64,000 nucleotides of DNA from a candidate division FCPU426 bacterium (GCA_963796105.1 CAWCKJ010000010.1:39620-103619); one strand, 5' to 3'; positions 1 to 16,515 are shown, numbered from the stretch's first letter. The notes: a model not told the origin generated them from the sequence alone. Numbers and translations are program-made.

Positions 1-255
1 GCCTGGGTATAACCGGGAAGGAAAAAGCCTGAAATTAAAATAGTGAAAAACAGGGAATTAAAAATCTTCGTTATCATAATGAAGTTTATGCTATCGGGGG
101 TTCAGGCGCGGGTCAACCTAAAAGGATTACGGGATTGAGCGCATTTTCTTAAAGAAAGGAAGAGGCGGGCCTTTTTAACTAGTCAGACAGTGGAAACGCG
201 ATGAATGAGCTTGGCCCTTAGCCGGCTAAACTCGCTGCGAATGAAAAGTTTAAAC

Positions 256-741
256 TCAGGCGCCTTCCATCCGGCTTTGGCAATTGATACAGCGGGTCGC
301 CCAAGGAATGGCTTTCATTCGGGCCATGGGAATGGATTTTTTGCAGACTTCGCAAGATCCGTAAGTCCCGTCCGTCATATGCGAAAGAGCCTTCTCAATC
401 CTCTCCAACTCAATCCGGTCGTTTTCCATCAGGGTGAGGGAAAGGTGCTGTGTGAGTTCCCCGGAGCCGTGATCCGCCATGTCGCCCGGTACATTTTGGT
501 TGTCCGCGATTTCCTCGCGGAGGTCCATCTCAAGATGATTGACCTGGCCGGTAATCTCATTGCGGCGGTCCTGTAATTTCTTGAGAAGGGGAACATAAGC
601 CGGGTCGATTTTAAGTCTTTTCTTCGGGGCTGGTTTTACCACGGCTGTTTTGGGAGCTGATTTTGCCGCCGCTTTCGGGGCTGGTTTTTTGGTTTTTTTC
701 GCGGAACTTTTCGAGGATGTCTTTTTTTTGGAACGAGCCAT
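256..741 (-). CDS. DksA/TraR-family C4 zinc-finger protein with ~55-aa lysine/alanine/proline-rich N-terminal extension
   Basis: C-terminal CEVCKK-x17-CINCQ (CxxC-x17-CxxC) zinc finger typical of DksA/TraR. Preceding coiled-coil region has an acidic tip (GDMADHG). N-terminus is low-complexity KKxAPK repeats resembling histone H1 tails. Confidence 0.7.
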   Translation of the reverse strand: MARSKKKTSSKSSAKKTKKPAPKAAAKSAPKTAVVKPAPKKRLKIDPAYVPLLKKLQDRRNEITGQVNHLEMDLREEIADNQNVPGDMADHGSGELTQHLSLTLMENDRIELERIEKALSHMTDGTYGSCEVCKKSIPMARMKAIPWATRCINCQSRMEGA

Positions 742-979
742 GGTTCCCTCCGGGTGCTATTAAAGTGGTCTAAAGCGCTTGCGATGAAATGGATGTTGAA
801 AAGGTATAGAAGATTATCGAAGGCTCTCTGAACTGTCAAGAATAAAGGAAATCTTTATTATCCGGAGGCTGTGGAATCGCTGACCGGGAAAAAGCCGGGC
901 CATCCTGTTTGAAAATGGCCTACAAAGGCTCATTCGAACGGCCTATACTTAGAGCAACCTTAAAATAAAGGAGCGCCTC

Positions 980-1549
980 ATGGCCATGGGTATTGTGCTA
1001 GTGGTTTTGTTTTTCATTTTAGGAATCGTCGTTCTTTTGGCGCTTTATTTCATCTCGGTCTACAACCATTTGGTTCGTTACAGGGTGGAGGTGGACGACT
1101 CCTGGAGCCAAATCGACGTCCAACTTAAACGACGGCACGATCTCATCCCCAATCTCGTGGAAACAGTCAAGGGGGTCATGGATTTCGAGAAGAACACCCT
1201 CACCCAGGTCATGCAGGCACGCGCCAGCGCCATGGGCGCCTCCAACATGGCCGACCGAATGAAGGCGGAAAGCGACATCACCAACGGCATGGGGCGGCTC
1301 CTGGCCGTCTGGGAAAATTATCCCGCCCTGAAATCCAACGAGAACGCCAAACAGCTCCAGGAGGAGCTCACCTCCACCGAGAACAAGATCGCCTATTCCC
1401 GGGGCCATTACAACGACGTGGTGGCCAATTTCAACACGATCGCCCAGCAGTTCCCGTCCAATCTCATCGCGGGTCCTTTTCATTTCCAACCCAGGGAATT
1501 CCTGAAGGCGGCCGACTCGGATAAGGAAGTCCCGCAAGTCAAACTCTGA
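980..1549 (+). CDS. LemA family protein
   Basis: N-terminal TM helix followed by the LemA-type conserved core (YNxLVxxRxxVDxxWSQIDVQLKRRxDLIPNLVETVKG...). Confidence 0.8.
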   Translation: MAMGIVLVVLFFILGIVVLLALYFISVYNHLVRYRVEVDDSWSQIDVQLKRRHDLIPNLVETVKGVMDFEKNTLTQVMQARASAMGASNMADRMKAESDITNGMGRLLAVWENYPALKSNENAKQLQEELTSTENKIAYSRGHYNDVVANFNTIAQQFPSNLIAGPFHFQPREFLKAADSDKEVPQVKL

Positions 1550-1594
1550 TTCCGACCGGAAGCTTTATAACGCCCGATCAGGACCGAGGCAGGG

Positions 1595-3283
1595 ATGTTT
1601 TATTCTTTACCCGCTGAAACAGTTTTCGAGGCCAAACAGCGCACTAAAAGAGCGACTTTTCTCCTCTTTTTTCTTTTGATCGTTCTTTATGTTTTCTTCG
1701 CGGATTTGATGGCCCTTTCCGTATATTTAATGCTCAAGCTCAGGTTCACCGCGAGAATCGGCTCGGATCTTCCCGGGATCATGATCTTCACGACTTTGAC
1801 CGCGGCCGTGGTCGCCGCAGGCCATTTCATGTATGTCCGCAACAAATCGCTCGAGGATATGCTTTCTCAAATCCAGGCCCGGCCCGCGGATCCCGGCGAT
1901 ACTTACCACGACCAATTCATCCATATCGTGGCGGAGGCAGGGGCCGCCACCGGCATCCGAGGTATTCAGCCCGTGGTGCTTTCCACGCCCGGGTGCAACG
2001 CCTTTTCCTTGCAGGATTCCCGGGGCGGTTCAGCCATCGGAGCCACCGAGGGGCTCTTGTCCAAGCTGACCCGCGGGGAGCTTTCGGCCGTCGTCGCGCA
2101 CGAGGCCGCGCACCTTCTGCATGAGGACACGAAACTCGTGACAACCGCCAGCTTCTTGTTCAGTGTTTTCGGGGACATCCATTCGGCCCTGGGGCGGATT
2201 CTTTCCTCAGGGACTTCCGCGCGGATAGCCGACTACGGGAATTCCTATGGAAAGCGCATTGGGGGTGGAGGCGGTTCCCTGATCATCCTGGTCCTTTGGC
2301 AGATTTCAGGTGTGGGCTACTTCTTGACCAGGCTCATCAGCATGGCTATATCCAGGGAAAGGGAATACCTAGCCGACGCGGACGGGGTCCAGATGTGCAA
2401 GGACCCCCTATCCCTGGCGGAGGGGCTTTACAAGATTTCCCATCGGTACCGGGGGGACATGCCGGACACCTATTCCGCGGTTTTCATCATGGACCCGAAC
2501 CAATCGGAATTAGCCGAGCAGGAAGGGTTATTGCCTGATCTTTTCAGCACCCACCCGCCAGTCTCCAAGCGCTTGACCAAGCTCCTGAATTGGGCGAAAT
2601 CGGACGTGAAGACCCTTCAGGAAGCGGTGGAGCGGGAGGAAAAAGCCGCCCCGGCTCCGGGATCCCCCGTGGGAACCCCGCTCGGCGATAAAGAGCCGGC
2701 GTTCATGACATTCCAAAACAACCAGTGGATGGGGCCCTATACCCCCCTCCAGCTTCTGACCGCGGGTATCATCACGCCCTCCTCGTGGGTATGTCCGGCG
2801 GGAAGCCAGGAAGTGACCAAGGCCTCGGAAACAGCCGAGTTGCTCCCGCTATTTCAAAAACAGGTCCAGGGGGCTGTGACCCAGCAAGCCTGCCCCCGTT
2901 GCAAGGTTCCCCTGATGGAAATCCATATGGAAGGAGCGGAAGCGGAACAATGCAGTTACTGCAAGGGCCATCTCTTAAAGGGCGGAGTCTTGGAAAGGCT
3001 CATCACCCGGGAGGAAATAACCTTTCTTCCCGAGGATATTCGGAAGGCCCGGATTTGGCGGGACGTCCAAAAAGGGCCCCTCAAGGACCGGGACCCATTT
3101 CCGGATATCCAGTGCCCATTTTGCGAAAGTCCCATGGGAAGGAGCATCCACTCCATCCTGACCCAGGTGGTCATTAACCATTGTTCGGACGATCAATGCG
3201 GAGCAATCTGGTGCGACGGGGGGGAACTGGAAACCATCCTTATGCTCATCCAAGATGCACACAGCGGCGCCGGGAAAGTGTAA
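1595..3283 (+). CDS. M48-family (HtpX-like) zinc metallopeptidase with C-terminal DUF4339-like segment and two zf-TFIIB-type zinc ribbons
   Basis: N-terminal TM helices. HEAAHLLHED (HExxH) and STHPPVSKRL motifs typical of HtpX/M48. C-terminus carries WMGPYTPLQLL (DUF4339/GYF-like) and two CPxC...C..C...IWCDGGELE zinc-ribbon modules. Immediately downstream of lemA, a common pairing. Confidence 0.8.
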   Translation: MFYSLPAETVFEAKQRTKRATFLLFFLLIVLYVFFADLMALSVYLMLKLRFTARIGSDLPGIMIFTTLTAAVVAAGHFMYVRNKSLEDMLSQIQARPADPGDTYHDQFIHIVAEAGAATGIRGIQPVVLSTPGCNAFSLQDSRGGSAIGATEGLLSKLTRGELSAVVAHEAAHLLHEDTKLVTTASFLFSVFGDIHSALGRILSSGTSARIADYGNSYGKRIGGGGGSLIILVLWQISGVGYFLTRLISMAISREREYLADADGVQMCKDPLSLAEGLYKISHRYRGDMPDTYSAVFIMDPNQSELAEQEGLLPDLFSTHPPVSKRLTKLLNWAKSDVKTLQEAVEREEKAAPAPGSPVGTPLGDKEPAFMTFQNNQWMGPYTPLQLLTAGIITPSSWVCPAGSQEVTKASETAELLPLFQKQVQGAVTQQACPRCKVPLMEIHMEGAEAEQCSYCKGHLLKGGVLERLITREEITFLPEDIRKARIWRDVQKGPLKDRDPFPDIQCPFCESPMGRSIHSILTQVVINHCSDDQCGAIWCDGGELETILMLIQDAHSGAGKV

Positions 3284-3345
3284 AATAAGACTGGCCTAGA
3301 TTTAGATATGAAATACAGAGCAAGACATGGATTGAAAGGAAGCGT

Positions 3346-3723
3346 ATGCCGGAAGCTTATTTGGAAAACGAGAAGCGCGTCGATCCCCGGTTCGCCGTGA
3401 GAATTCCCATCCTCTTCAGGGAAATGGACAATAAGGACGAAATCAGGAGCCTCCTGGACCCCTATAAGAAGGAAAGAAAAGCCCACACGGTAAATGTCAG
3501 CATCAGCGGGATGTGCCTGGTCGCGGGGATGGCGCTCAAGATCGGGACCGTCTTGAGCCTTGAGATATTGCTTCCCGGCTCTATGAAAATGCTGAAAGCG
3601 GTGGCCGAGGTGGTATGGTCGAAAGAGGCGAGCGCGGGAATCCGTTTCCTGGCCATGAAGGAAAACGACATGGTCTCCTTCAAGGCTTACCTCGACGAGG
3701 TTTCCTCCGGAAGCAACCCATAA
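3346..3723 (+). CDS. PilZ domain protein (putative c-di-GMP receptor)
   Basis: RxxxR-like motif (RVDPRFAVR) near the N-terminus and N-V-S-I-S-G ([D/N]xSxxG) motif. The ~120 aa size is typical of stand-alone PilZ proteins. Confidence 0.55.
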   Translation: MPEAYLENEKRVDPRFAVRIPILFREMDNKDEIRSLLDPYKKERKAHTVNVSISGMCLVAGMALKIGTVLSLEILLPGSMKMLKAVAEVVWSKEASAGIRFLAMKENDMVSFKAYLDEVSSGSNP

Positions 3724-3755
3724 TATTAAGCCGGCATGAAAGACACCCAAATTAA

Positions 3756-4484
3756 ATGAGCGTGATTTTTTACACCTTCTCCATCTCCTTGTTTGACAGT
3801 CTCTCTACCACCCTTCAAATCATTATCTTCGTCCTCCTGCTCACAACCACTCATCCGATCCGAAACGCCCTTTTTTATCTGGCCGGGTTGAGCGGGGCCT
3901 ATTATTTTTGCGGCTTCGCCGGATACTTCGCGCTGGATGATTTGCGGCTGTTCCTGAAACAGTTTTTCCCGTCCATGGATTCCATATCCAATCCGCTTTA
4001 TTACCAATCGGAATTATTGACGGGCGTGGTCATGGTCGCCATCGGGATTTGGTATTACTTCAGGAAGAAAAAGGCCCCGCAGGGCAGGGCTGAAAACATG
4101 ATTATCTCGAGACTCAAGACTATGAACAGCCTCTTCGCCTTTGTGGCCGGCGCTTTCATATCGATTACGTCTTTTCCTGTTTCCATCCCCTATTTGATAG
4201 CCTTGGGCAAGTACTCGACGCTTCAACTGGAGCTTCCGGCGTTGTGCGGGTACATCCTGCTTTATAACATCGGCTACGCCTTGCCCATGGTCCTCATCTT
4301 GGCCATTTACTTGGTCGCCCGCAGGAATACCGATGACTATCACGACGCCTTGCATGAGAAAGCCAGGATGCTGAATGTCCACCTCACGACCTGGACCTTC
4401 ATTGGCTTCGGGATCTTTTCCATGATTGACGCAGGGTGCTACTTCACGTTGGGCCATGCCTTGGTCAAAGGAAGGTATTTTTAA
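3756..4484 (+). CDS. hypothetical polytopic membrane protein
   Basis: About 6 predicted hydrophobic helices. No recognisable catalytic motif. Confidence 0.4.
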   Translation: MSVIFYTFSISLFDSLSTTLQIIIFVLLLTTTHPIRNALFYLAGLSGAYYFCGFAGYFALDDLRLFLKQFFPSMDSISNPLYYQSELLTGVVMVAIGIWYYFRKKKAPQGRAENMIISRLKTMNSLFAFVAGAFISITSFPVSIPYLIALGKYSTLQLELPALCGYILLYNIGYALPMVLILAIYLVARRNTDDYHDALHEKARMLNVHLTTWTFIGFGIFSMIDAGCYFTLGHALVKGRYF

Positions 4485-4516
4485 TAATCTGATTGTTTTT
4501 ATATCGAGGATAGGAG

Positions 4517-4951
4517 TTGCGGATGAACAGCCAGTGGGTTTTCATTTCTTTGACGACCATTTTTTACGGACTATTTAATATTTTCACCCGGGCCGCGGGA
4601 CCTAAAATCGGCGGAATCCTGGGGCCCTTGCTTTTGGAGGGTTTCGCGACGGCGCTTCTTTTGATGTTTTTTCTATGGAGGAGATTCAACGGGTCGGTGG
4701 AATCGGCGACTTCGCTGGGAGTCGCCTTTTCCATGGCCGCCGGGTTTTGCGCCGCCGCGGGTTCCGTGGCTTTTTTCATCGTCTTCTCGAGGGGCGGACA
4801 GCTTTCGGTGGCAGGCTCCTTCGTCCTCATTGGAAGCACCTTGCTGACGATCCTGGGAGGGTTTTTCTTCTTCAAGGAACCGCTTTCATCCACCCGCGCC
4901 GCCGGGATCCTTTTGGGGTTGATCAGCCTCTTTCTTTTGCGGATGGAGTAA
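4517..4951 (+). CDS. small 4-TM membrane protein (DMT/EamA-like half-transporter?)
   Basis: Four hydrophobic segments in 144 aa, glycine-rich helices. Family assignment is tentative. Confidence 0.35.
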   Translation: MRMNSQWVFISLTTIFYGLFNIFTRAAGPKIGGILGPLLLEGFATALLLMFFLWRRFNGSVESATSLGVAFSMAAGFCAAAGSVAFFIVFSRGGQLSVAGSFVLIGSTLLTILGGFFFFKEPLSSTRAAGILLGLISLFLLRME

Positions 4952-5003
4952 TCGAATTGGGTATTATGATTGACCGGGATTTTGTATAAAATTAACTTAT
5001 TGG

Positions 5004-5723
5004 ATGAGAGGGATGGTAAGAAAAATGATCAGCATAAAAAACACATGGGTTTTGTTGACCGGCGCCAGCCGGGGCGTGGGAGTGAGAGTCGCCAGGGCTT
5101 TGGCGGATCAAGGCTGTAAATTGATTTTGCAAAGCAGGAATTTAGAGGGCACGAAAAAATTGGTGGAGGAACTGAAGGCCAAGGGAGTCGAGGCTTATTC
5201 GATCGCGGCGGAGTTGTCCGACCTGAGGCAAGTGGAGCGTTTAATCGCCGAGGCCCGGCGCCTGTCGGGGGACCATATCGACATTCTTTATAACAACGCG
5301 GCGATCATGGCGAAATATCACGAAGATAAATACGGGGCCACCGCTGATGAATATGTCATGAGTTTCCTGGTGAACGTGACCGTGCCAGCCCTGATCTGCA
5401 ACGCCTTTATCCCCAAAATGGTAGAGAGGGGCTGGGGCCGTATCGTGAATGTGACTTCCGGTATCGCCGATCAGCCGCAGTTGATGCCCTATAGCTGTTC
5501 CAAGGCCGCGCTGGACCGCTATGTGCGGGATCTTGTCACGACCCTCGCTGGGACGGGCGTGCTCATCAATTTAATGGACCCGGGATGGCTCAGAACCGAC
5601 TTGGGGGGGCCGCAAGCTCCGAATGATCCTGATCGGGTTTTGCCGGGGGCCCTTGTGCCGGTACTATTGGAAGAGAAGGAAGGTAGCGGAAAACTTTACC
5701 GCGCCATGGATTATGCCAAGTGA
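5004..5723 (+). CDS. short-chain dehydrogenase/reductase (SDR) family oxidoreductase
   Basis: TGASRGVG Rossmann motif, NNAA and Y-x3-K (YSCSK) catalytic motif. Confidence 0.8.
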   Translation: MRGMVRKMISIKNTWVLLTGASRGVGVRVARALADQGCKLILQSRNLEGTKKLVEELKAKGVEAYSIAAELSDLRQVERLIAEARRLSGDHIDILYNNAAIMAKYHEDKYGATADEYVMSFLVNVTVPALICNAFIPKMVERGWGRIVNVTSGIADQPQLMPYSCSKAALDRYVRDLVTTLAGTGVLINLMDPGWLRTDLGGPQAPNDPDRVLPGALVPVLLEEKEGSGKLYRAMDYAK

Positions 5724-5766
5724 GCTGTGAGTTTAGCGGACGCAATATTTTGAACAGGAGAAACAC

Positions 5767-7884
5767 ATGAGAAAAATTTTTGGATTGATGGCGGTACTCT
5801 TATTCCTTTCACCCGCGGTTTTCGCGGCGGTGGTGGAGGATTGGACCGGGGTGCAAGCGGCGAATACCGGCACCTATATGGACAGCAACGGCTCCAAGAT
5901 CGATTTTGCCGTGGACGCGGGGCCCAAGAGCGGGCAGAAGGCCCTGAAACTGACCTCCAATCTCATGCAGAGTGGCTATTGCGGCATCTGGCACAATTTC
6001 ATGGCGGACCTGTCAAAAGGGGCGAATTTGAAGTTCATGGCCAAGTCCACGCTACCGGGAGACATCCAAGTCGCTTTGAAGGACGCCTATAACGTTCAGT
6101 ACATCGCCAAGGCGCAGGTCAGCACGGATTGGGCGGAAATCTCCATCCCGCTGGCCAGTTTCCGCAAGGACCCCTATTACACCCCTCCTGACGCCATTAC
6201 GGGACATTTGATGGACCTTAGCAAAACTTCTGGGATGAATTTCGCCCCTCAAATGGCGGGGGCGGCGGTGCTTTTGTTCGGGCAGGTCGAGACGGACGGG
6301 ACGGCCGCGGCCGCCTCAAGCGCCCCAGCACCCGTGACCGTAACCAAGGATCTCGAGTTTGTCGTGATGCCGGACCAAGTGCTCGGGCCCATCAGCCCCT
6401 ATATCTACGGCCTGAACAGTCAGGATCCAACAGGCATGAACGCGACCGTCCGCAGGCTGGGCGGCAACCGCATGACTGGATACAACTGGACCAACAACTA
6501 CTCCAACGCCGGGACCGATTGGAAGAACTCCAGCGACGATTGGCTCTGCGTCTCTCCGGTTAAATACGCCGATTGCGACCAGCCTGGCGCTCTTTACCGG
6601 CATTTCGTGGAGGACAACCAGAAAGCGGGGCTGGAATCGCTCGTCACGATCCAGATGGCGGGCTACGTGTCCGCCGATAAGAAGGGCGAGGTATTGAAGG
6701 AGGAGACGGCCCCGAGTCCCCGCTGGGCCAAATTGGAGTTCGCGAAAAAAGAAGACTACACCCTGACACCCAGTCCGGACAGCAAGGTCGTCTATGACGA
6801 CGAGTTTGTCAACTACCTGGTCCAGACCTTCAAGTCGGCCTCCAAGGGTGGCATCAAATTCTACGACCTCGACAACGAGCCCGCCCTTTGGTGCGGCAAG
6901 CACCTCCGCATCCACCCGGACAAGCTCACCTATCCCGAGATCTTTGATAAGTCGGTCCAACTAGCCCATGCCATCCTCAAGGTGGATCCTACAGCCATGA
7001 TCTTCGGGCCGGTGGCATATGGTTGGCAGGAGTTCCTCAGCCTCCAGGAATCGCCGGACTACGTGGAAATGAACAAGACCTATGGTTCCTACCTCGATTA
7101 CTACCTGGCCCAGTTCCAAGCGCAGGAAAAGAAGGACGGCCAAAGATTATTGCACGTGCTCGACCTCCATTGGTACCCAGAAGCCCAGGGCGGGGGAATG
7201 CGCATCACGGAGAATGATGTCACATCCGATTCCATCGATGCCAGGGTCCAAGCGCCCCGTAGTCTTTGGGACCCCGATTACATCGAGAAAAGCTGGATCA
7301 CCCAGTGGTCCACGCACAACAAGCCCATCCGCCTCATTCCCTGGGTCCAGGAGAAGATCGACAAAAATTATCCCGGGACGAAGCTTTCTTTCTCGGAGTA
7401 TGACTACGGGGGAGGAAACCATATCTCCGGCGGGATCGCCCAGGCGGACGTGCTGGGGATTTTTGGAAAAACAGGGGTTTATATGTCGAACTACTGGGGG
7501 GACCTGAATCCCTATAACAAGGCGGCTTTCAAGCTCTACCGCAATTACGACGGCAAAAACGCGGCCTTCGGCGGAACCTCCGTCTCAGCCACGGCAGGGG
7601 ATGTGGCTTTGGCCTCCATCTACGCCGCGACAGACCCCTCCCAGCCCGGTACCCTCTGGCTGGTGGTCCTGAACAAAAGCCAAAAGGACTCCATCCATGG
7701 AAAGTTCAAGTTCCAAGGAAAAGACGCCCACAAGAAATATGTCTGTTACGGGTTCGACGGCAAGTCATCGGAGGTCCAGAAGATCAAGGAAGGGGGGATC
7801 GACAAGGACCATTTTGAGTATTCCCTCGCACCCCTATCCGCCACCTTGTTCGTATGTAAGGGAGAGAATAAAACTCAAAAGTAG
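5767..7884 (+). CDS. secreted glycoside hydrolase, clan GH-A TIM-barrel (GH44-like), with N-terminal ~190-aa beta-rich domain
   Basis: Signal peptide. RLGGNRMTGYNWTNN and LDNEPALW (NEP catalytic acid/base motif of clan GH-A). 705 aa. The family call is from memory of motifs only. Confidence 0.5.
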   Translation: MRKIFGLMAVLLFLSPAVFAAVVEDWTGVQAANTGTYMDSNGSKIDFAVDAGPKSGQKALKLTSNLMQSGYCGIWHNFMADLSKGANLKFMAKSTLPGDIQVALKDAYNVQYIAKAQVSTDWAEISIPLASFRKDPYYTPPDAITGHLMDLSKTSGMNFAPQMAGAAVLLFGQVETDGTAAAASSAPAPVTVTKDLEFVVMPDQVLGPISPYIYGLNSQDPTGMNATVRRLGGNRMTGYNWTNNYSNAGTDWKNSSDDWLCVSPVKYADCDQPGALYRHFVEDNQKAGLESLVTIQMAGYVSADKKGEVLKEETAPSPRWAKLEFAKKEDYTLTPSPDSKVVYDDEFVNYLVQTFKSASKGGIKFYDLDNEPALWCGKHLRIHPDKLTYPEIFDKSVQLAHAILKVDPTAMIFGPVAYGWQEFLSLQESPDYVEMNKTYGSYLDYYLAQFQAQEKKDGQRLLHVLDLHWYPEAQGGGMRITENDVTSDSIDARVQAPRSLWDPDYIEKSWITQWSTHNKPIRLIPWVQEKIDKNYPGTKLSFSEYDYGGGNHISGGIAQADVLGIFGKTGVYMSNYWGDLNPYNKAAFKLYRNYDGKNAAFGGTSVSATAGDVALASIYAATDPSQPGTLWLVVLNKSQKDSIHGKFKFQGKDAHKKYVCYGFDGKSSEVQKIKEGGIDKDHFEYSLAPLSATLFVCKGENKTQK

Positions 7885-8031
7885 TGAACTGGCGACCCGA
7901 AAGGGCGCACCTTAACTGACTTCCAATGTGATTTTTGCGTTTTTTGGGTGTTAATATAGGGGCCTGACTTTGAATCTATTCTTTCGATGTAATATACTTT
8001 TAATGAAAACAATTGATTAAGGGGGCGCCAA

Positions 8032-8235
8032 ATGGATTTAAAAGTCCTGCTGGAACCAAGTGAAGAAGGTGGTTATACGGCTCTTGTTCCCGCTCTTCCA
8101 GGATGTATTTCTGAGGGTAAAACTAAAAGAGAGGCACTGAAAAATATCCGGGAAGCCATTAGTTTGTATTTGGAGCCGGTGGATGATGATTTGTTGGCCA
8201 GTCCAAACGCAATAATTGAAAAAATCGCCGTTTGA
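8032..8235 (+). CDS. hicB: HicB-family antitoxin
   Basis: Small (67 aa) UPF0150/HicB-like sequence (YTALVPALPGCISEGKTKREALKNIREAI). Overlaps the downstream hicA start by 4 nt. Confidence 0.7.
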   Translation: MDLKVLLEPSEEGGYTALVPALPGCISEGKTKREALKNIREAISLYLEPVDDDLLASPNAIIEKIAV

Positions 8236-8462
8236 GCAAGGTTCCTAGTCTTCCTTATCATCGTATTGTTTCATCCCTCCAAAGATTGGGTTTTGTCGTG
8301 GTGCGTCAAAAGGGAAGCCATATCAGGCTGCAGAGATCAACCCCTGATGGGGAAGTCATCAAAATCACAGTGCCTGCCCACCAACCTGTTTTGAGATCTA
8401 CCTTGGCGCACATCCTAAAACAAGCGAAAGTTGGACTTGAGGATTTTTTAAACCACATTTAA
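8232..8462 (+). CDS. hicA: HicA-family mRNA interferase toxin
   Basis: YcfA/HicA-like fold signature (LGFVVVRQKGSHIRLQR). 76 aa. Confidence 0.75.
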   Translation: MSKVPSLPYHRIVSSLQRLGFVVVRQKGSHIRLQRSTPDGEVIKITVPAHQPVLRSTLAHILKQAKVGLEDFLNHI

Positions 8463-8520
8463 GACCGCTTGGACAGTCCGCCAAGGCTGGTCACCCGATG
8501 CTTGCGCTAAGGGGGCGGAT

Positions 8521-8635
8521 ATGGGAATCAAATTTTCCGGGGATATCAGGCCGGTGACCGATTTGAAGCGAAACACCCGCAGTCTATTAGACCAAATCCA
8601 TAGAACCTGCCGTCCGGTTGTGTTAAGGATGATAA
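8521..8635 (+). pseudogene. truncated Phd/YefM-type antitoxin N-terminal fragment
   Basis: N-terminus (VTDLKRNTRSLLDQIHRTCRPVVL) matches the Phd/YefM antitoxin N-terminal pattern. The reading frame runs into the duplication junction at 8636 and loses sense. Confidence 0.4.
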
Positions 8636-9083
8636 GATCGCCCAGGCGGACGTGCTGGGGATTTTTGGAAAAACAGGGGTTTATATGTCGAACTATTGGG
8701 GAGACCTGAACCCCTATAACAAGGCGGCTTTCAAGCTCTACCGCAATTACGACGGGAAAAACGCGACCATCGGCGGAACCTCCGTCTCAGCCACGGCCGG
8801 GGATGTGGCTTTGGCCTCCATCTACGCCGCGACAGACCCCTCCCAGCCAGACACCCTTTGGCTGGTGGTCCTGAACAAGAGCCAAAAGGACTCTATCCAC
8901 GGAAAGTTCAAGTTCCAAGGAAAAGACGCCTACAAGAAATATGTCTGTTACGGGTTCGACGGCAAATCACCGGAGGTCCAGAAGATCAAGGAAGGTGGGA
9001 TCGACAAGGACCATTTTGAGTATTCCCTCGCGCCCCTATCCGCCACCTTGTTTGTTTGTAAGGGAGAGAATAAACCTCAAAAG
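8636..9083 (+). pseudogene. duplicated 3' fragment (last ~147 codons) of the glycoside hydrolase gene
   Basis: About 97% nucleotide identity to 7434-7881. Predicted 145-aa ORF 8652-9089 is near-identical to the C-terminus of the 705-aa hydrolase. Confidence 0.75.
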
Positions 9084-9298
9084 AAATAAATCTATGCGGT
9101 GAGGTCTTAACCCAAACGGGGTGGGTTAACTTTGAAAAAGTTATTTGAAAAGTACTTTGCATTGCAAAGTAACTGTAGTTTCAATCAAAAACACAAATAA
9201 CCCGAGAATAAATATGTACTGTTATCCGTAAAAATCCGTATTATTCCCGGAATAAACCGAATCATCCAATCGCATCTTTTGTTATTATTGTTTAATCA

Positions 9299-10153
9299 AT
9301 GGAAAATAAATTCAAAACTTTTATCAACAAAAACTTTGGAATTGGTTTAGCCATTGTGATTGCCACTTCAATATTTTGGGGTCCTGTAAATTAAAATTTT
9401 TCTAAAAATTTAGAGGCAAACCAAAGTTCTCAAGATGAGTTTAGCAGGGGTTTTATATTTCGTTTCAAGAACGAACCTCTGGAAAAAATAAAACCTCTTT
9501 TCGCCCCTGATATTCGTAATCAATTCATCAACCTTTACCCCAAGATGACCGATATCTTGAATAAAATGGGTGAAATCCAATCCGTCCACTTGACCGAAAA
9601 CGAAGATGTCAAAGATAAGTCGGGCCGAGTTCTCGGAAAAGGCCTGAGATATTATGCGGATTTTAAAAAAGGCTCAATCATCATCCAAGTTGTAACAGCC
9701 CCTCATGGGGAAAGTTTTCAAGTCAATGGAATGTATTTCAATGGGGCTAAGTATAGATATGATGAAATATTTCCATTTCATTTCACGAACCGCAATTGGT
9801 TGCAATACGTTTTTCTTTTCTTTGCTTATGGTCTTTTTCTTTTTTGTGCGATCACATTCATTAAATGCCTGCAGAATGAGATGATCGGAGGATGGGAAAA
9901 AGCATTTTGGTTAGTAGCTATTTTATTTGGGTCCATCAATTTAAACATGTTTTGGCTACCGCCATCGCAAGGTTATTTTTCAGTGGGTGACAATACCGAC
10001 ACGGCATTAAATATCAAGTTTTTAATCTTATTCCCTTCGGGAATTGTAAAAGTTGGTCTTTATAACCCATGGAGGGTTTGGATTTCAATTCCTATTGGAT
10101 TAATGGCGTATAATTCGAAAAATATTTTCCGAAAAGAGCCGAGCAATAAATAG
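9299..10153 (+). pseudogene. hypothetical membrane protein gene interrupted by an in-frame TAA (31-aa N-terminal TM peptide + 202-aa ORF 9545-10153)
   Basis: ATG at 9299 opens a frame encoding a TM helix. TAA at 9392. The same frame then stays open for 50 sense codons in about 30% GC DNA before the annotated ATG at 9545. The 202-aa product has about 4 TM helices. No known family recognised. Confidence 0.4.
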
Positions 10154-10332
10154 AGACCCAGAATGAGCATTGGAAAAGGGGTCTGATCCCTTTATTGTGG
10201 CACCTAGTAATTTGCCAGCTCGTTAATCCTCATGCCCAGGCTGCAATAACAAATAGTTGTTTTCACGCAACCTTTTTGGGCTTGGCGCGTATTAACTTAT
10301 AGCAACAAAACAATAAAGGCGGATTCAACCAA

Positions 10333-11079
10333 ATGGAAAACATGAATTATTACCTATACGCGGCGGCGGTGATTTTGACCCTGCTTGAGATTTGTTTTCG
10401 CTGGGCCATTCCGGCGGTCCGGCGGAATCCATCCTTGGGGGCATGGGTGGAAACGGTGGATTCCCTTTGGGTGGCTCTTCTGCTGGCCCTGGCCCTCAAA
10501 GCCGTCCTACTCCAGCCTTTTGTGATACCTTCCGGCTCTATGGAAGACACCCTAAAGATTGGGGATTATATCCTGGTGAAAAAATACGAGTACGGCTACT
10601 CGATTTGGAACAGCACCAAAAGGTTCCTTGAATTCAAAAAGCCCCAAAGAGGCGATATCGTGGTTTTCGTCTTTCCCAAGGACCATACCAAAGATTTCGT
10701 CAAACGGTGCGTGGGGACACCGGGGGACATCCTGGCCTACAAGGACAAGGAGCTTTACGTGAACGGGGTGAAGCAAGTGGAGCCTTACGTACAGCATATC
10801 GATCCCCGGATCTTGAAAGCGGGGGACCCGCTCGAACCGGTTGGGGATGAGGAGTCGCCCACGGCGGATGGGCTCAGGAGCAGTCGGGATAATTTCGGGC
10901 CTGTCACGGTGGAAGCGGGCCATTATTTCATGATGGGGGATAACAGGGACAACAGCCTGGACTCCCGTTATTGGGGCCAATTGGATGAGAAACTCGTCAA
11001 AGGGAAAGCTTGGATGATCTACTGGCACTCGAAAAACTTCCATCCCGAATTCAGCCGCATGTTTAAAATAGTCCATTAA
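10333..11079 (+). CDS. lepB: signal peptidase I
   Basis: S26 motifs PSGSMEDTL (Ser nucleophile), VKRxxGxPGD and GDNRDNSxDSRYWG. Confidence 0.9.
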   Translation: MENMNYYLYAAAVILTLLEICFRWAIPAVRRNPSLGAWVETVDSLWVALLLALALKAVLLQPFVIPSGSMEDTLKIGDYILVKKYEYGYSIWNSTKRFLEFKKPQRGDIVVFVFPKDHTKDFVKRCVGTPGDILAYKDKELYVNGVKQVEPYVQHIDPRILKAGDPLEPVGDEESPTADGLRSSRDNFGPVTVEAGHYFMMGDNRDNSLDSRYWGQLDEKLVKGKAWMIYWHSKNFHPEFSRMFKIVH

Positions 11080-11118
11080 GATTCAACCGGGACCTTGCCC
11101 GGAGACCGGGTTTGACAG

Positions 11119-11697
11119 ATGGGTGAATCAAAAACCTCGAGCCAAGGGTCGTCCTTGGAAGACCAGGAAATTATCCGGAAAGTCAAAGCGGGGGACCGGG
11201 AGGCTTTTTCCGCGCTGGTTGAAAAATACCACCGTCCCCTTTTGAACTTCATTTACCACCTTCTCGGAAACCCATCCATGGTGGAGGATGTGGGGCAGGA
11301 GGTTTTCCTCAGCGCTTACCAATCCCTCGGCCGATTCGACCCCGAAAGGGGGACGCCCTTCTCGGCCTGGCTATTCACGATCGCCCGGAACAAGGTTTAC
11401 AGCGAGATCCGGAAGAAACGCCCTTTTTTGTCGTTGGAGGATTTTTTCCACCTGCCGGGGAGGGGAAATAATCCTGAGGAAAACCTTCTTGAGAAAGAGA
11501 GGGTGGAGGCCATCAGGGAGTGCCTGAATATCCTGCCTGAGAATCACCGGCGGGCGTTGATGAAACATTTAGAGGGATTCGCGCAGATTGAACAGGCCCG
11601 CAGGGACAAGATCCCGGCAGGCACGGTGAAAGCCCGGTTCTTTCGGACGAAACAAGTTCTCAGGCTGATACTGGAAAAACGATTCGGAGGTTTGTGA
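11119..11697 (+). CDS. ECF-type RNA polymerase sigma-70 factor
   Basis: Sigma-70 region 2 (FLSAYQSLGRFDP...FSAWLFTIARN) and region 4 HTH. 192 aa. Confidence 0.85.
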   Translation: MGESKTSSQGSSLEDQEIIRKVKAGDREAFSALVEKYHRPLLNFIYHLLGNPSMVEDVGQEVFLSAYQSLGRFDPERGTPFSAWLFTIARNKVYSEIRKKRPFLSLEDFFHLPGRGNNPEENLLEKERVEAIRECLNILPENHRRALMKHLEGFAQIEQARRDKIPAGTVKARFFRTKQVLRLILEKRFGGL

Positions 11698-11698
11698 C

Positions 11699-11872
11699 AT
11701 GGAAGAATTTAAGCCGTCGGAAGGTTTCGTAAGACTCGTCATGAGACGGATCGCCGAAACAGAGGAACAAGCTAAAAGGTGGGAATATAGTTTGCGCTAT
11801 AGGTTTATCCGCTTGGCCCTCGCTGGTTCCGCCTTGTTGGGATCTGTTCTCATGGCCAATCCTTGCCACTAA
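11699..11872 (+). CDS. putative small membrane-anchored anti-sigma factor (57 aa)
   Basis: Starts 1 nt after the sigma factor stop. Charged N-terminus followed by one TM helix (FIRLALAGSALLGSVLMA). Below the 60-aa ORF-track cutoff. Function inferred from position only. Confidence 0.3.
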   Translation: MEEFKPSEGFVRLVMRRIAETEEQAKRWEYSLRYRFIRLALAGSALLGSVLMANPCH

Positions 11873-11977
11873 TCACTGAGGCAAATAAATCGACTTACTT
11901 TCATTTCGGTAACCGAATTTTTTTCAAAAGACCCCCTTTCCCCCCATCCTCTTGGTTGTAATTCCAATCAAATATTT

Positions 11978-13633
11978 GTACTACCTGAATTTTGCACCGA
12001 GTTTACCGATTCCGTGGCCAGATCGGCCTGAATCGGGACCCGACAGTGGCCATTTTCATCAGAAGTGAACTTATGTGCAAAGAATTTTTTGCACCAAGCC
12101 ACTTCTAGGCCGCCCTGGGTCTTTCCAATCGTTTTCGATCAAGGTATTTGAGGAAACCCAATAGGCCCGCTGTCCTATCATCATGGATTGAATACCTCAC
12201 CACATCCCGATGGCCGTGATACTGGATTCGGGCGGCTACAAAGAGCATCTTCAAACGTGCGATCCGAAGGGTATGGTCCGGCATGGTGATCTGTTCCTTC
12301 TCCTGTGGCTTCTTTCCCGGTCGCTTTTCTTTTCCACAATGGCCCACCATTAGTTTCATCCACCTCCAGAGGTTGTAAGCCAGCATCACGATCTGGAAAA
12401 AAGCATGGTGGCTTTGGAAACTCTTAGAGGGAATTGCTAATAACCCCTCCCGTTGCGCCTCACCAATCAGGTTTTCCACATCCGCGCGCAGGTCGTATTC
12501 CTCAACCACCCGATGGGGTGCTCCCAGACAGTTGGTCGCGAAGATTCGGTAGACATATCCTTCCATTTCAGGAAGGCTCAATTGTTTCTCCCGCGCTTTT
12601 TCATCCAGCGTCCTCATCGCCACAAACCGGACTGGTTGTTGCCAGCCTATGGGTTGATGGACACATTCGTTGTATTCGTGTTCTCCATGGCGGTACCAAC
12701 CCTTTTTCGTGAAAGGCGGGTCATGCCGCTTGTTCCCGAAGATGAAAGAAAACCCTTCTTTTTCACAGGCTTTCACGCTTTCCCAGCCGATCATTTCACC
12801 GTCACCGCGCACCAGAATCGTCCGGACACAGGACGGCAAGAGTCGCCGGAATTGTCTAATTTGGCGGGCCACTTCCTCAGAACTAAGGGTGGTTCCGCGT
12901 CTTTGGGTTCCGCACAAATATTCCCGGGTTTCCTGGAGAAAACACAGAATGGGCCTCAGTCCCTTCTTGCCCCGGTGCTTGGGGTTGTATCCTTTTCGGC
13001 TTCCCTCGATATTTCCGTAGACCGTTGCGGTGGTGGTATCGATGTTGATCTCCACCTTCTTGGGGGCATATTTCACCTGTCCCCAAACCTTGGCCCGTAA
13101 CGCCCCACTCAGATTCAGCAACGATGCCGACTGCCCGATCCCCAGCGACCTCAGGTATCTCCAAAAAGTTGTCACTACCGGCAACAAGGGAACCCGCAGT
13201 AAACCGCACAGCATGACCTCACCCCGCAGGTAGGCAAAATGGCCAAGTCTTTGGAACCCGATGAAAAGAAGCATTAGGATGCCGCTTACCATCCGGTAGT
13301 GGCCCAAATTCGGAAGGCGTTTAGGTGCGGCATAGTGTTTTTTGAATTCCCGCTCAAAATCAAGAAGGTCGAACATCTTCGCCAATGCCAACAATCCGCC
13401 AAAAGCTGTTAGGCGGTCTTCGCAAATACCTACGGGAGTATTGGCCGTAATCTTGGGCGCGATTCTCCCGTTTCGATTGGCTTTTTTCTGGACTTGCGGG
13501 TTTGATTTCTGAGGCGTATCTTGACGTTTCACCATCTGGGGGACCCTCTTTTAGGATGAGTTGGCTTCGCAACCCTTATCCTATAATGGTTTCCTAGATG
13601 GTTTTTTTATTAGGCGCAAAATTCAGGTACTAG
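11978..13633 (-). mobile_element. IS1380-family-like insertion sequence (transposase CDS 12105-13535, minus strand)
   Basis: 476-aa DDE transposase with an IS1380-like N-terminus (RLTAFGGLLALAKMFDLLDF). Imperfect ~20-bp terminal inverted repeats: gtactacctgaattttgcacc at 11978-11998 and ggcgcaaaattcaggtactag at 13613-13633. Confidence 0.55.
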
Positions 13634-14768: not shown

Positions 14769-14828
14769 TCTACCGGCATGGGGATGTCGCCTACTGGCAT
14801 GACCGGCGTTTGTTACCGGCATGGGGAT
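14769..14828. repeat. left remnant of 43-bp-period tandem repeat array (CTACCGGCATG-based A/B half-units)
   Basis: The sequence ctaccggcatggggatgtcgcctactggcatgaccggcgtttgttaccggcatggggat is directly continuous, in register, with the array resuming at 16130 once the IS3 element is removed. Confidence 0.8.
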
Positions 14829-16129
14829 TGGTGTGCGCCCCAAACCTTGGACAGTTTTTACTCCAAGTTGAGAATAGGTTTTCCGGCGATTGGTTTGAGT
14901 GACTTTAAAGCCTCGAACTCCTCAGGCGGCATGTAGCCGATAGAAGAATGCAACCGTTTTTTGTTATACACCTCCTCGATGAAGTATGGAAGTCTTTGAA
15001 GCACTTCCTGATAAGTTTCGTAATTGAATAGATGCACCTCCTCATATTTCAAGGTTTTGAAAAAGGATTCCGCATTTGCATTGTCGTAAGGGTTGCCTGT
15101 CCTGGACATGCTGATCCTTAATCCTTTGGACTCAAGCAGGGCCACGTAATCCCAGCAGGCATATTGCACCCCTCTGTCTGAATGGTGGATGCATCCCGGA
15201 AGAGGATTCCTTTCCTCTAAAGCCATGCGTAAAGCCGAAAGCGACAACTCCCGATCCAGTCTCTTGGAAACCGCCCACCCGATCACCTTTCTGGAAAAAC
15301 GATCCAGAATGGCCGCCAGATAAACAAAGCAAGTGAGGATTCGGATATAGGTAATATCCGCCACCCACACTTGATTGACAGCAGTTTCTGCCACCCTTTC
15401 CAAGAGGTTGGGGAACACCGGCAGGTCGTGATTGGATTGGGTGGTTTGGATCTTGAACCTTTTCCCCCAAATAATAGGGTAAAGACCGTATTTCCTTACC
15501 ACCCGCCGAATCCGTTTGGCGTTAATCCTTAATCCCTCCCGTAAAAAGTGGTGGTAGAGCCTCCGATAGCCGTAGTAGGGGAAGGTCAATCTCACCTGCT
15601 CGATTCGGTTCTTTAAGTCCAAATCTCTTTGTTCCTGAATCTCCGGTTCACTTTTAAGTGCAGAATAATAGGTACTTCGAGGAAGCCCCATCATTTGGCA
15701 TCCTCTTGAAATTGAGCCAAATTCCTTGAGGTGATCACGGAGGTATCGAGCTTTCTCTGGTTTTCCGCGTATTTTTGGAATTTTTTTAAAAGGTCTATCG
15801 CCATGATCAATTCCCCAATCTTGGCTTTGAGTTTCTCATTCTCTTTTTCCAATATTTTTTCGTGAAGGGAAGGTTTTTCAACCAAGGTTCCTTGGCGATA
15901 TTTATCGCGCCAACGGGTTATAACGCTTGGATTGAGCTGGTATTGACGAGCAGCTTCATTGAGCGATAGGCCAGTTTCTACCTCGTGGACGACTTGTTCT
16001 TTGAAATCAATACTGAACTTCCGTCTTATTTTACCCATTTGGAAATGCTCCTTTGGGGGGTTACCCCTTGAGCCGTTTCCCTATTCTCTATTTTTTGCTT
16101 CAACTGTCCAACTTGTAGGGCGCGTTCCA
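14829..16129 (-). mobile_element. IS3-family insertion sequence (orfA 15691-16038, orfB/rve integrase 14858-15694, minus strand)
   Basis: OrfA is an HTH transposase. OrfB has the DDE integrase core. orfA stop and orfB start overlap as ATGA. ~45-bp imperfect terminal inverted repeats begin TGGTGTGCGCCCC (14829) and TGGAACGCGCCCT (reverse complement, ending 16129). 3-bp direct duplication GAT at 14826-14828 and 16130-16132. Confidence 0.85.
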
Positions 16130-16515
16130 GATACCGCCTACCGGCATGACCGGCGTTTGCTACCGGCATGGGGATGCCACCTACTGGCATGACCGAAGTT
16201 TACTACCGGCATGGGGATGTCGCCTACTGGCATGACCGGCGTTTGTTACCGGCATGGGGATACCGCCTACCGGCATGATCGGCGTTTGCTACCGGCATGG
16301 GGATGTCGCCTACTGGCATGACCGGCGTTTGTTACCGGGATGGGGATACCGCCTACCGGCATGATCGCGTTTGCTACCGGCATGGGGATGTCGCCTACCG
16401 GCATGAGCGGCGTTTGCTACCGGCATGGGGACGCTGCCTACCGGCATGACTGACTTTTCCTACCGGCATAGGGATAATCTCCTACCGGCATGTAGATTTC
16501 ACCTGCTGGCAGAGC
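16130..16515. repeat. tandem repeat array, 43-bp period = alternating 22-bp A (CCTACCGGCATGACCGGCGTTTG) and 21-bp B (CTACCGGCATGGGGATGTCG) units, ~9 periods, degenerating at the 3' end
   Basis: CCTAC(C/T)GGCATG start positions 16137, 16180, 16223, 16266, 16309, 16352, 16394, 16437 (spacing 43, one 42), then 22/22/21-bp half-units. Confidence 0.85.

Follow-up and report, generated by a model that had tools for sequence, protein, structure and literature searches.

In Escherichia coli, e14 and phage 21 integrate into the 3' end of icd, bringing a replacement gene end. In an E. coli assay with circular DNA that carries part of lacZ, the dominant result is a single crossover after which the homologous segment, duplicated over 109-950 bp, stands on both sides of the insert (PMC3240628). 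Homology-facilitated illegitimate recombination (HFIR), cited for Acinetobacter, S. pneumoniae and P. stutzeri (in PMC5361080 and PMC3240628), has been proposed as the mechanism behind displaced 3' regions and orphan immunity genes at type VI secretion system (T6SS) and Rhs loci (PMC5361080). Here we describe a locus of this general kind in a 64,000-nucleotide (nt) stretch of DNA from a candidate division FCPU426 bacterium (GCA_963796105.1, CAWCKJ010000010.1:39620-103619), referred to below as the window, with positions counted from its first letter. The 3' end of a gene for a secreted glycoside hydrolase of family 44 (GH44) is present twice, and the two copies flank a hicB-hicA toxin-antitoxin (TA) pair and a truncated phd-like antitoxin gene. 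The locus is probably a recombination scar that joins two versions of the same locus diverged by ~5%. Its main features are the following.

5767-7884, plus strand: secreted GH44 glycoside hydrolase of 705 amino acids (aa), intact, with an N-terminal CBM11-like domain (Pfam PF12891, PF03425).
7434-7881, plus strand: repeat copy A, codons 557-704 of the intact GH44 gene.
8032-8235, plus strand: hicB, predicted antitoxin of 67 aa (PF15919, E 1e-9, 39 bits against a cut-off of 27).
8232-8462, plus strand: hicA, predicted toxin of 76 aa with a TTG start, overlapping the hicB stop by 4 nt (PF07927, E 3.3e-14).
8509-8626, plus strand: truncated phd/yefM antitoxin gene (phd'), ribosome-binding site and codons 1-35 of a gene of ~94 codons (85.6% nt identity to metagenome contigs L018-L022).
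8627-8635, plus strand: 9-nt filler GGATGATAA between phd codon 35 and GH44 codon 557.
8636-9089, plus strand: repeat copy B (repeat part 8636-9083) with its own last codon and stop (AAATAA), a displaced GH44 3' end.

Pairwise alignment of 7434-7881 with 8636-9083 is gapless over 448 bp, and identity drops at once beyond both edges. This bears out the duplication given in a preliminary description of the DNA, as well as its 754-bp spacer with hicB and hicA (both genes score above their Pfam cut-offs), its intact upstream copy (copy A completes the 705-aa GH44 gene) and its Gly/Asp and His/Tyr changes, which correspond to G628D and H655Y. The copies are less alike than it had estimated, with 95.1% identity in place of ~97% and 22 mismatches in place of roughly 10; these fall in 21 codons and comprise 15 transitions and 7 transversions. 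A blastn self-comparison identified the pair as the sole long repeat of the 64-kb window (E = 0.0), so a chance repeat is not a concern. Simple tandem duplication was considered and rejected because hicBA is not repeated after copy B: identity ends at 9083, the DNA past copy B is unrelated, and the window has hicBA once only. The longest identical run between the copies, 60 nt at the left edge of the repeat, is marginally unusual (~5% by a simple geometric estimate), and a crossover tract inside the repeat was discarded as uninterpretable on this basis.

The substitutions between the copies bear on their history. Expressed per site, 16 synonymous and 6 nonsynonymous differences over 99.5 synonymous and 347.5 nonsynonymous sites correspond to a ratio of nonsynonymous to synonymous divergence (dN/dS) of 0.107, with a synonymous divergence (dS) of ~0.18. 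Both neutrality (Fisher p = 2.7e-7) and the path-average ratio of at least 0.55 expected with one copy a pseudogene since the split (p = 2.6e-4) are rejected. The amino-acid changes from A to B are A600T, F601I, G628D, H655Y, S668P and T703P, alongside 15 synonymous codon changes. Polarity was assigned at amino-acid sites only, with five relatives as outgroups (77-83% nt identity), because at third positions these are too diverged to polarise the synonymous differences. Derived residues were found on both copies: H655 and S668 on copy A, in place of the Y and P/A, respectively, of all or most relatives, and D628 on copy B, where all five outgroups have G.

Copy B furthermore retains an uninterrupted frame, with no stop or frameshift in 149 codons and a 145-aa open reading frame (ORF) from a GTG at 8652. 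It ends in AAA TAA, giving ...KPQKK before the stop, and the same kind of end (...QKK) is found in relatives L004 and L003; copy A is one codon shorter than the relatives' end, and its TAG stop is supplied by the inserted DNA (7882 on). The low dN/dS, the derived residues on both copies, the open frame of copy B and its ...QKK terminus together argue that the divergence predates the junction and accrued while both copies were functional gene ends. They also contradict the proposal in the preliminary description that the downstream copy is a decaying remnant. Since the differences appear allelic and older than the junction, they point to two diverged lineages or paralogues and not to duplication in place; judged on the substitution pattern, two strains and two paralogues fit equally well.

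The second line of evidence is the junction between phd' and copy B. The phd' reading frame starts at 8521, and 94-aa Phd homologues retrieved by an exhaustive protein search with the 38-codon query are identical or similar through residue 35 (...RPVVL), after which they continue with TVNGKA.... At the DNA level, homology covers 8509-8626 at 86% identity and then stops. The Phd/YefM-like piece had been described as 38 codons long and cut exactly at 8636; the Phd-like frame is confirmed, but only 35 codons are homologous, codons 36-38 being filler, and as homology ends at 8626 the gene is cut 9 nt ahead of the repeat. The filler GGATGATAA resembles neither the phd homologues, which have CCGTCAATG at that spot, nor the GH44 gene upstream of 7434, which reads CTCCGGCGG. 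The succession of phd codon 35, 9 nt of filler and GH44 codon 557 has the appearance of a typical illegitimate join. The locus is hence homologous on one side (448 bp, 95.1%, sharp edges) and non-homologous on the other (8626, 9 nt, 8636), and the suggestion of a recombination scar that used the gene's 3' end as the crossover region stands, with a 3'-end direct repeat around heterologous TA DNA and one non-homologous junction. Read across 8627-8639, the filler and the first repeat bases give GAT-GAT-AA-GAT-C, so that the filler contains the three bases with which the GH44 segment opens; this may reflect templated synthesis during end-joining.

The phd' product matches positions 2-29 of the PF02604 profile with E 0.0016 and 18.6 bits, the truncation of the gene keeping the score under the cut-off of 29.8. 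In its full-length relatives (L018-L022) a ParE toxin gene comes after that of the 94-aa Phd, whereas here GH44 sequence follows and the parE-type partner is missing. By homology, phd' is a gene fragment of the Phd/YefM family and not a functional member. The nearest full-length Phd lies in an array of at least three type II TA modules (relB-yafQ, higB-higA, phd-parE), and a TA array with the same arrangement and an identical Phd protein occurs in at least five metagenome contigs of different samples.

Taken as a scar, the locus most likely combines the DNA of two strains of one candidate-division FCPU426 species. In one version a small TA array (hicBA, then phd-parE) would have stood behind GH44 allele A, and in the other an AT-rich segment behind GH44 allele B. 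Their joining would require two reactions: a homologous interaction of the RecA type, inside the GH44 3' end or adjacent to it, and an illegitimate end-join, the latter linking phd codon 35, nine filler bases and GH44 codon 557. Three routes can be envisaged. In route (a), a 1.2-kb donor fragment (GH44-A 3' end, hicBA, phd') would be circularised by end-joining and then inserted by a single crossover in the 448-bp homology, which would therefore be duplicated on both sides of the insert. Route (b) would be HFIR with GH44 as the anchor. Route (c) is the mirror case, in which copy B and the AT-rich DNA would be incoming, with downstream homology as the anchor, and would be joined illegitimately into a resident phd, the phd 3' end and parE being deleted. 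All three routes are equally compatible with the data.

Any of these routes would leave an intact GH44 gene with allele A at its end, a hicBA module both complete and probably active, a dead phd stub and a displaced, promoterless 3' fragment of allele B. Copy B is free of disabling mutations, and the join therefore appears to be recent. With repeats that are 95% identical, RecA could delete the DNA between them, and hicBA would be lost. As toxin-antitoxin addiction counter-selects loss of a module, it would be expected to select against this excision and may help the structure to persist.

The intact gene belongs to family GH44 by domain score and by homology to solved enzymes. Its catalytic domain scores 207.7 bits against PF12891 (E 2.9e-61, cut-off 25.1) and its N-terminal region matches PF03425 with E 1.8e-8. 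Over residues 207-698 it aligns with the Cel44C xyloglucanase (PDB 2yih) at E 9.6e-145, and the solved xyloglucanases and endoglucanases 2yih, 2e0p and 3ik2 give E 1e-133 to 1e-144 over the same residues, which span the TIM barrel and the C-terminal beta-sandwich. Copy B starts at codon 557 and spans only the last 148 residues. The conserved SEYDYGG motif, which we take to be the site of the GH44 catalytic nucleophile Glu, lies just before this start, so that fragment B should contain no catalytic residues and is presumed inert as an enzyme. That the displaced beta-sandwich fragment (the open 145-aa ORF) is nevertheless expressed and retained for some function is a speculation, less likely still than that on the spread of TA modules given below.

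The DNA between the copies contains three further features, all ahead of or spanning the hicBA genes.

7882-7954, plus strand: 73-bp spacer supplying the TAG stop of the intact GH44 gene, with no similarity found.
7955-8455, plus strand: hicBA block (promoter region and both genes), 82.9% nt identity to positions 5722-6224 of JGI contig L010.
7970-7998, plus strand: sigma-70-like promoter candidate for hicBA (TTGAAT, 17 nt, TATACT), from a consensus scan.

The two genes are adjacent and intact, and both score above the family thresholds (hicA with 53.2 bits against a cut-off of 27, its product being 89% identical to protein P0124), as expected for a HicAB type II toxin-antitoxin system. HicB consists of the HicA-binding domain only, without a C-terminal DNA-binding domain. 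With respect to L010, dN/dS is 0.06 for hicB and 0.065 for hicA, and these low ratios show hicBA to be conserved and under purifying selection. In L010 the homologous block is preceded by a different gene and followed by a UPF0150 gene in the place of phd. Both hicBA and phd' match their nearest relatives (83-86% nt) over the module only and in differing contexts, which shows that such modules are shuffled as small units. The translation-initiation contexts of hicB (8018-8042) and phd' (8508-8532) are near-identical (TAAGGGGGCG, 3-5 nt, ATGG); this could be chance, or a common origin or host of both TA modules.

The promoter candidate falls inside the block conserved in L010, and promoter-scan hits in the region are no commoner than in shuffled sequences. 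The spacer at 7882-7954 shows no similarity to the DNA downstream of copy B, to the relatives or to L010, and folds no better than shuffled sequence (z = -0.9). A terminator or structured RNA in 7882-7954 and 8456-8520 was likewise rejected, folding being no better than shuffles and terminator and promoter scans being at background frequency. Low GC content was also dismissed as a sign of a foreign TA insert: the insert has 45% GC and the window 48%, and it is the GH44 gene, at 57%, that is the GC-rich part.

Independent sequence for the right-hand side of the scar comes from Logan short-read contigs. Two of these (L014 and L015), found via the orphan 202-aa protein encoded beyond copy B, derive from runs ERR11523656 and ERR11523672 and are 100% identical to 9002-12011 and 9002-10944. 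Each begins at the first B-unique 31-mer after the last 31-mer shared by A and B (9001-9031, equal to 7799-7829), which is the expected behaviour of a k = 31 assembly graph at a repeat. The k-mer-exact contig starts mean that both samples contain A-type as well as B-type sequence, and that copy B is genuinely joined to the downstream DNA. On the left, Logan contig L023 equals window 1-7313 at 100% identity.

Several observations weigh against the proposed scar. L023 stops at 7313, 121 nt short of the repeat, and not at the predicted 7463; none of the 31-mers at this stop occurs elsewhere in the window, and a coverage gap or a population variant at ~7314 could account for the stop. The predicted 866-bp unitig (7800-8665) is absent from the Logan records, the exact HicB being recorded from NCBI and ENA only and no recorded contig encoding it, with the result that the source contig is the one sequence spanning the junctions 7881/7882 and 8635/8636. 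A length cut-off may have removed the unitig, since no Logan contig matched by hicA measures less than 928 bp. A strain-level relative was sought in GTDB species genomes, a 5.8-billion-protein set, JGI metagenomes and by exact-protein look-ups (GH44, HicA, HicB), and none was present in these collections: the closest GH44 has 88% aa identity and the best JGI match 79%. With no relative closer than 88%, there is no empty site and no donor, and the event is not polarised. Route (b) is topologically awkward, as classical HFIR usually deletes recipient DNA and does not duplicate the anchor, so that routes (a) or (c) are needed; in addition, neither competence nor conjugation is known from this lineage. 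Finally, an origin from paralogues yields the same dN/dS signature.

That last point introduces the alternative that survives best, although we regard it as unlikely. Here two full-length GH44 paralogues (~95% identical), with the TA array and perhaps a short-chain dehydrogenase (SDR) gene between them, would have been resident in the genome, and one deletion, with end-points at phd codon 35 and at codon 556 of the second paralogue, would have left the present structure. Selection would have acted on both copies, giving an equally low dN/dS, and the same illegitimate junction with filler would result. The gene order around GH44 lends it some weight, the relevant neighbour being as follows.

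5025-5723, plus strand: SDR gene (Pfam adh_short, E 1.3e-38), directly upstream of GH44.

The longest ORF of this gene starts at 5004, and the 232-aa form is the one in the protein collection. The closest genomes are metagenome-assembled genomes (MAGs) labelled candidate division FCPU426, with GH44 proteins of 72-88% aa identity. Six relatives (L001-L004, L024, L025) have GH44 followed by an SDR, 86-87% identical (aa) to that of the window, whereas here the SDR precedes GH44 with 43 bp between them; apart from GH44 and SDR, the window and those relatives have no neighbourhood gene in common. This circular permutation points to a history of rearrangement, either by an older tandem duplication whose copies were lost differentially, which would produce such an order, or by movement of the two genes as a mobile unit. 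The paralogue explanation is opposed by the lack of any second GH44 copy or fragment in the relatives' loci retrieved, and of any extra SDR or GH44 5' part in the window. Direct repeats of 2 kb, 95% identical and a few kb apart, would moreover be unstable, and an earlier duplication, a TA insertion and a deletion amount to more events than the joining of two strain versions. As a separate observation, GH44 proteins of some relatives (L002, L003; also P0002-P0004) measure 875-880 aa, with the CBM11-like N-terminal region tandemly duplicated, and window 5833-6302 matches twice in the L002 and L003 loci.

An assembly chimera appears quite improbable. It would hold that the contig was stitched together from a pair of co-occurring strains, in one of which GH44-A was followed by hicBA, phd and parE and in the other GH44-B by the AT-rich DNA, no molecule carrying both copies. 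The source is indeed a metagenome-assembled genome, and only one contig, of 174,652 bp (NCBI/ENA), is recorded as encoding the exact GH44 protein. The short reads show only A/B k-mer co-occurrence in two samples, with the middle hicBA segment not on record in short-read assemblies, and the unexplained break at 7313 could reflect a variant allele. However, the phd'/GH44 junction offers no shared sequence that could mislead an assembler, and nine filler bases stand between the parts. A full-length B allele should disturb the contig across GH44, yet L023 is 100% identical over 7.3 kb, including 1.5 kb of GH44, and both right-hand contigs break exactly where a repeat within one genome predicts. 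The contig names of the relatives (contig_NNNN, MFD MAGs) suggest long-read assemblies, with reads that would span 1.2 kb, as judged from those relatives, and the missing 866-bp unitig may have the simple explanation given above.

The remnant of a site-specific integrative element is very unlikely. In this account an element with a replacement 3' end, bounded by attL and attR, was later deleted down to hicBA and phd'. A 3'-end direct repeat in which the element's copy completes the gene and the native end is displaced is the classic outcome of such integration, as for e14 in icd, where allelic and mostly synonymous differences are also seen, and TA modules are common cargo of these elements. 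Against it, neither integrase nor excisionase was found between or beside the repeats, where the 754 bp hold hicB, hicA and phd' only, and, with regard to an integron gene cassette, the neighbouring ORFs scanned gave no integrase-family match, no formal attC search having been made. An insert of 754 bp is small and an attachment homology of 448 bp unusually long; the deletion must also end exactly at the repeat edge, failing which this account collapses into that of an illegitimate junction. As stated in the preliminary description, no transposase or integrase is adjacent: none occurs within 3 kb, the nearest DDE transposases being 3-6 kb off with their own inverted repeats, in two insertion sequences at 11979-13632 and 14835-16123.

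Duplication of the gene's own 448 bp in place, with the downstream copy drifting as a pseudogene, has next to no probability. In its favour, copy B lies wholly downstream of the catalytic motif and so could not yield an active enzyme, and it has the radical G628D at a residue invariant in five relatives. However, neutral drift of one copy is rejected by the dN/dS (p = 2.6e-4), and derived changes are no fewer on the intact copy A than on B. Copy B is free of stops and frameshifts even though synonymous divergence has reached 0.18, and it is B, not A, that kept the ancestral C-terminus.

Beyond copy B lies the segment that would have followed allele B in the second strain.

9090-10300, plus strand: AT-rich segment (36% GC against 48% for the window) with an orphan 202-aa membrane-like ORF (9545-10153).

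Measured over 9084-10300, this 36% is the only clearly deviant GC content near the locus. The orphan ORF has no Pfam hit; a search of 5.8 billion proteins gave, besides an identical copy, a single homologue, which has 60% identity and is encoded next to TetR and PilZ genes in an unrelated bacterium. Past the segment lie lepB and a gene for an ECF sigma factor. The insertion sequence at 11979-13632 (~1.65 kb) encodes a DDE_Tnp_1_4 transposase of 476 aa on the minus strand and is bounded by terminal inverted repeats of 20 nt that are 90% complementary. Short-read contig L014 runs ~32 nt into its left end and stops there, at 12011, which is the behaviour expected at a multicopy element. The element at 14835-16123 belongs to the IS3 family, with 44-nt imperfect inverted repeats and an rve-domain transposase at 14858-15694 on the minus strand. 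It appears to be inserted in a non-coding tandem array of a 43-nt unit (window 14770-16492), which extends over 14770-14828 to the left of the element and over 16130-16492 (8.4 copies) to its right; within the unit, CTACCGGCATG occurs twice.

Read as a recombination scar, the locus offers a clean natural example, from a soil bacterium of the uncultured candidate phylum FCPU426, in which both alleles, the non-homologous junction and the filler are still legible. It illustrates that the substitution pattern between repeat copies can separate decay in place from an origin in two lineages, which is relevant to partial gene duplicates in MAGs. The occurrence of hicBA and phd-parE as small shuffled units right after housekeeping genes is consistent with TA modules stabilising variable segments. 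A more far-reaching and doubtful speculation is that small type II TA modules spread between uncultured soil strains without mobile-element machinery, on short chromosomal fragments anchored by the end of a neighbouring conserved gene, and then protect the resulting repeats by addiction against excision through RecA; if true, displaced gene ends such as copy B would be a general and datable footprint of TA traffic.

The type of event is an already-known phenomenon, a recombination scar with a displaced gene end, and implies neither a new mechanism nor any bearing on enzyme function. The TA components themselves are variants of familiar systems. As in other HicAB systems the pair is complete and conserved, with overlapping genes, but HicB has only 67 aa and, unlike canonical HicB, no C-terminal DNA-binding domain. 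The E. coli hicAB operon has the toxin gene first, whereas here the antitoxin gene comes first. What the locus has in common with Phd/YefM-ParE systems is the first third of a Phd, which in its full-length relatives is encoded ahead of parE; the phd module here is dead, being truncated and lacking a toxin gene. The resemblance to e14 and phage 21 in icd lies in a duplicated 3' end, a proximal copy that keeps the gene intact, a displaced distal native copy and mostly synonymous differences. It ends with the absence of a recombinase, the 754-bp insert and the truncated gene at the distal junction.

Displaced 3' regions at Rhs, contact-dependent inhibition (CDI) and T6SS loci are similar in that a full gene is followed by a displaced homologous 3' fragment with a toxin/antidote-type module between them, and the same mechanism has been proposed (PMC5361080). 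There, however, the variable part is the gene's own toxic C-terminus and displacement diversifies weaponry, while the present locus combines near-identical alleles of a carbohydrate enzyme (6-7 aa differences), a separate intracellular type II TA module and one fragment in place of an array. HFIR provides the combination of one homologous anchor with one illegitimate junction, the capture of DNA without a recipient homologue, and a donor and recipient that are related but diverged. The classical events replace or delete recipient DNA beside the anchor, so that a retained anchor duplicate would need the mirror geometry or a circular intermediate, and the junction here shows filler and no visible microhomology. 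Campbell-type integration accounts for the duplicate directly: a direct duplication of the homologous segment flanks the insert, its 448 bp lie within the 109-950 bp of the lacZ assay, and one copy restores the gene while the other is a fragment. Where the locus departs from it, the 'plasmid' would be a 1.2-kb chromosomal fragment of a sister strain, closed illegitimately with 9 nt of filler and carrying no replicon or selectable marker, its copies differing by 5% and its history read from sequence alone.

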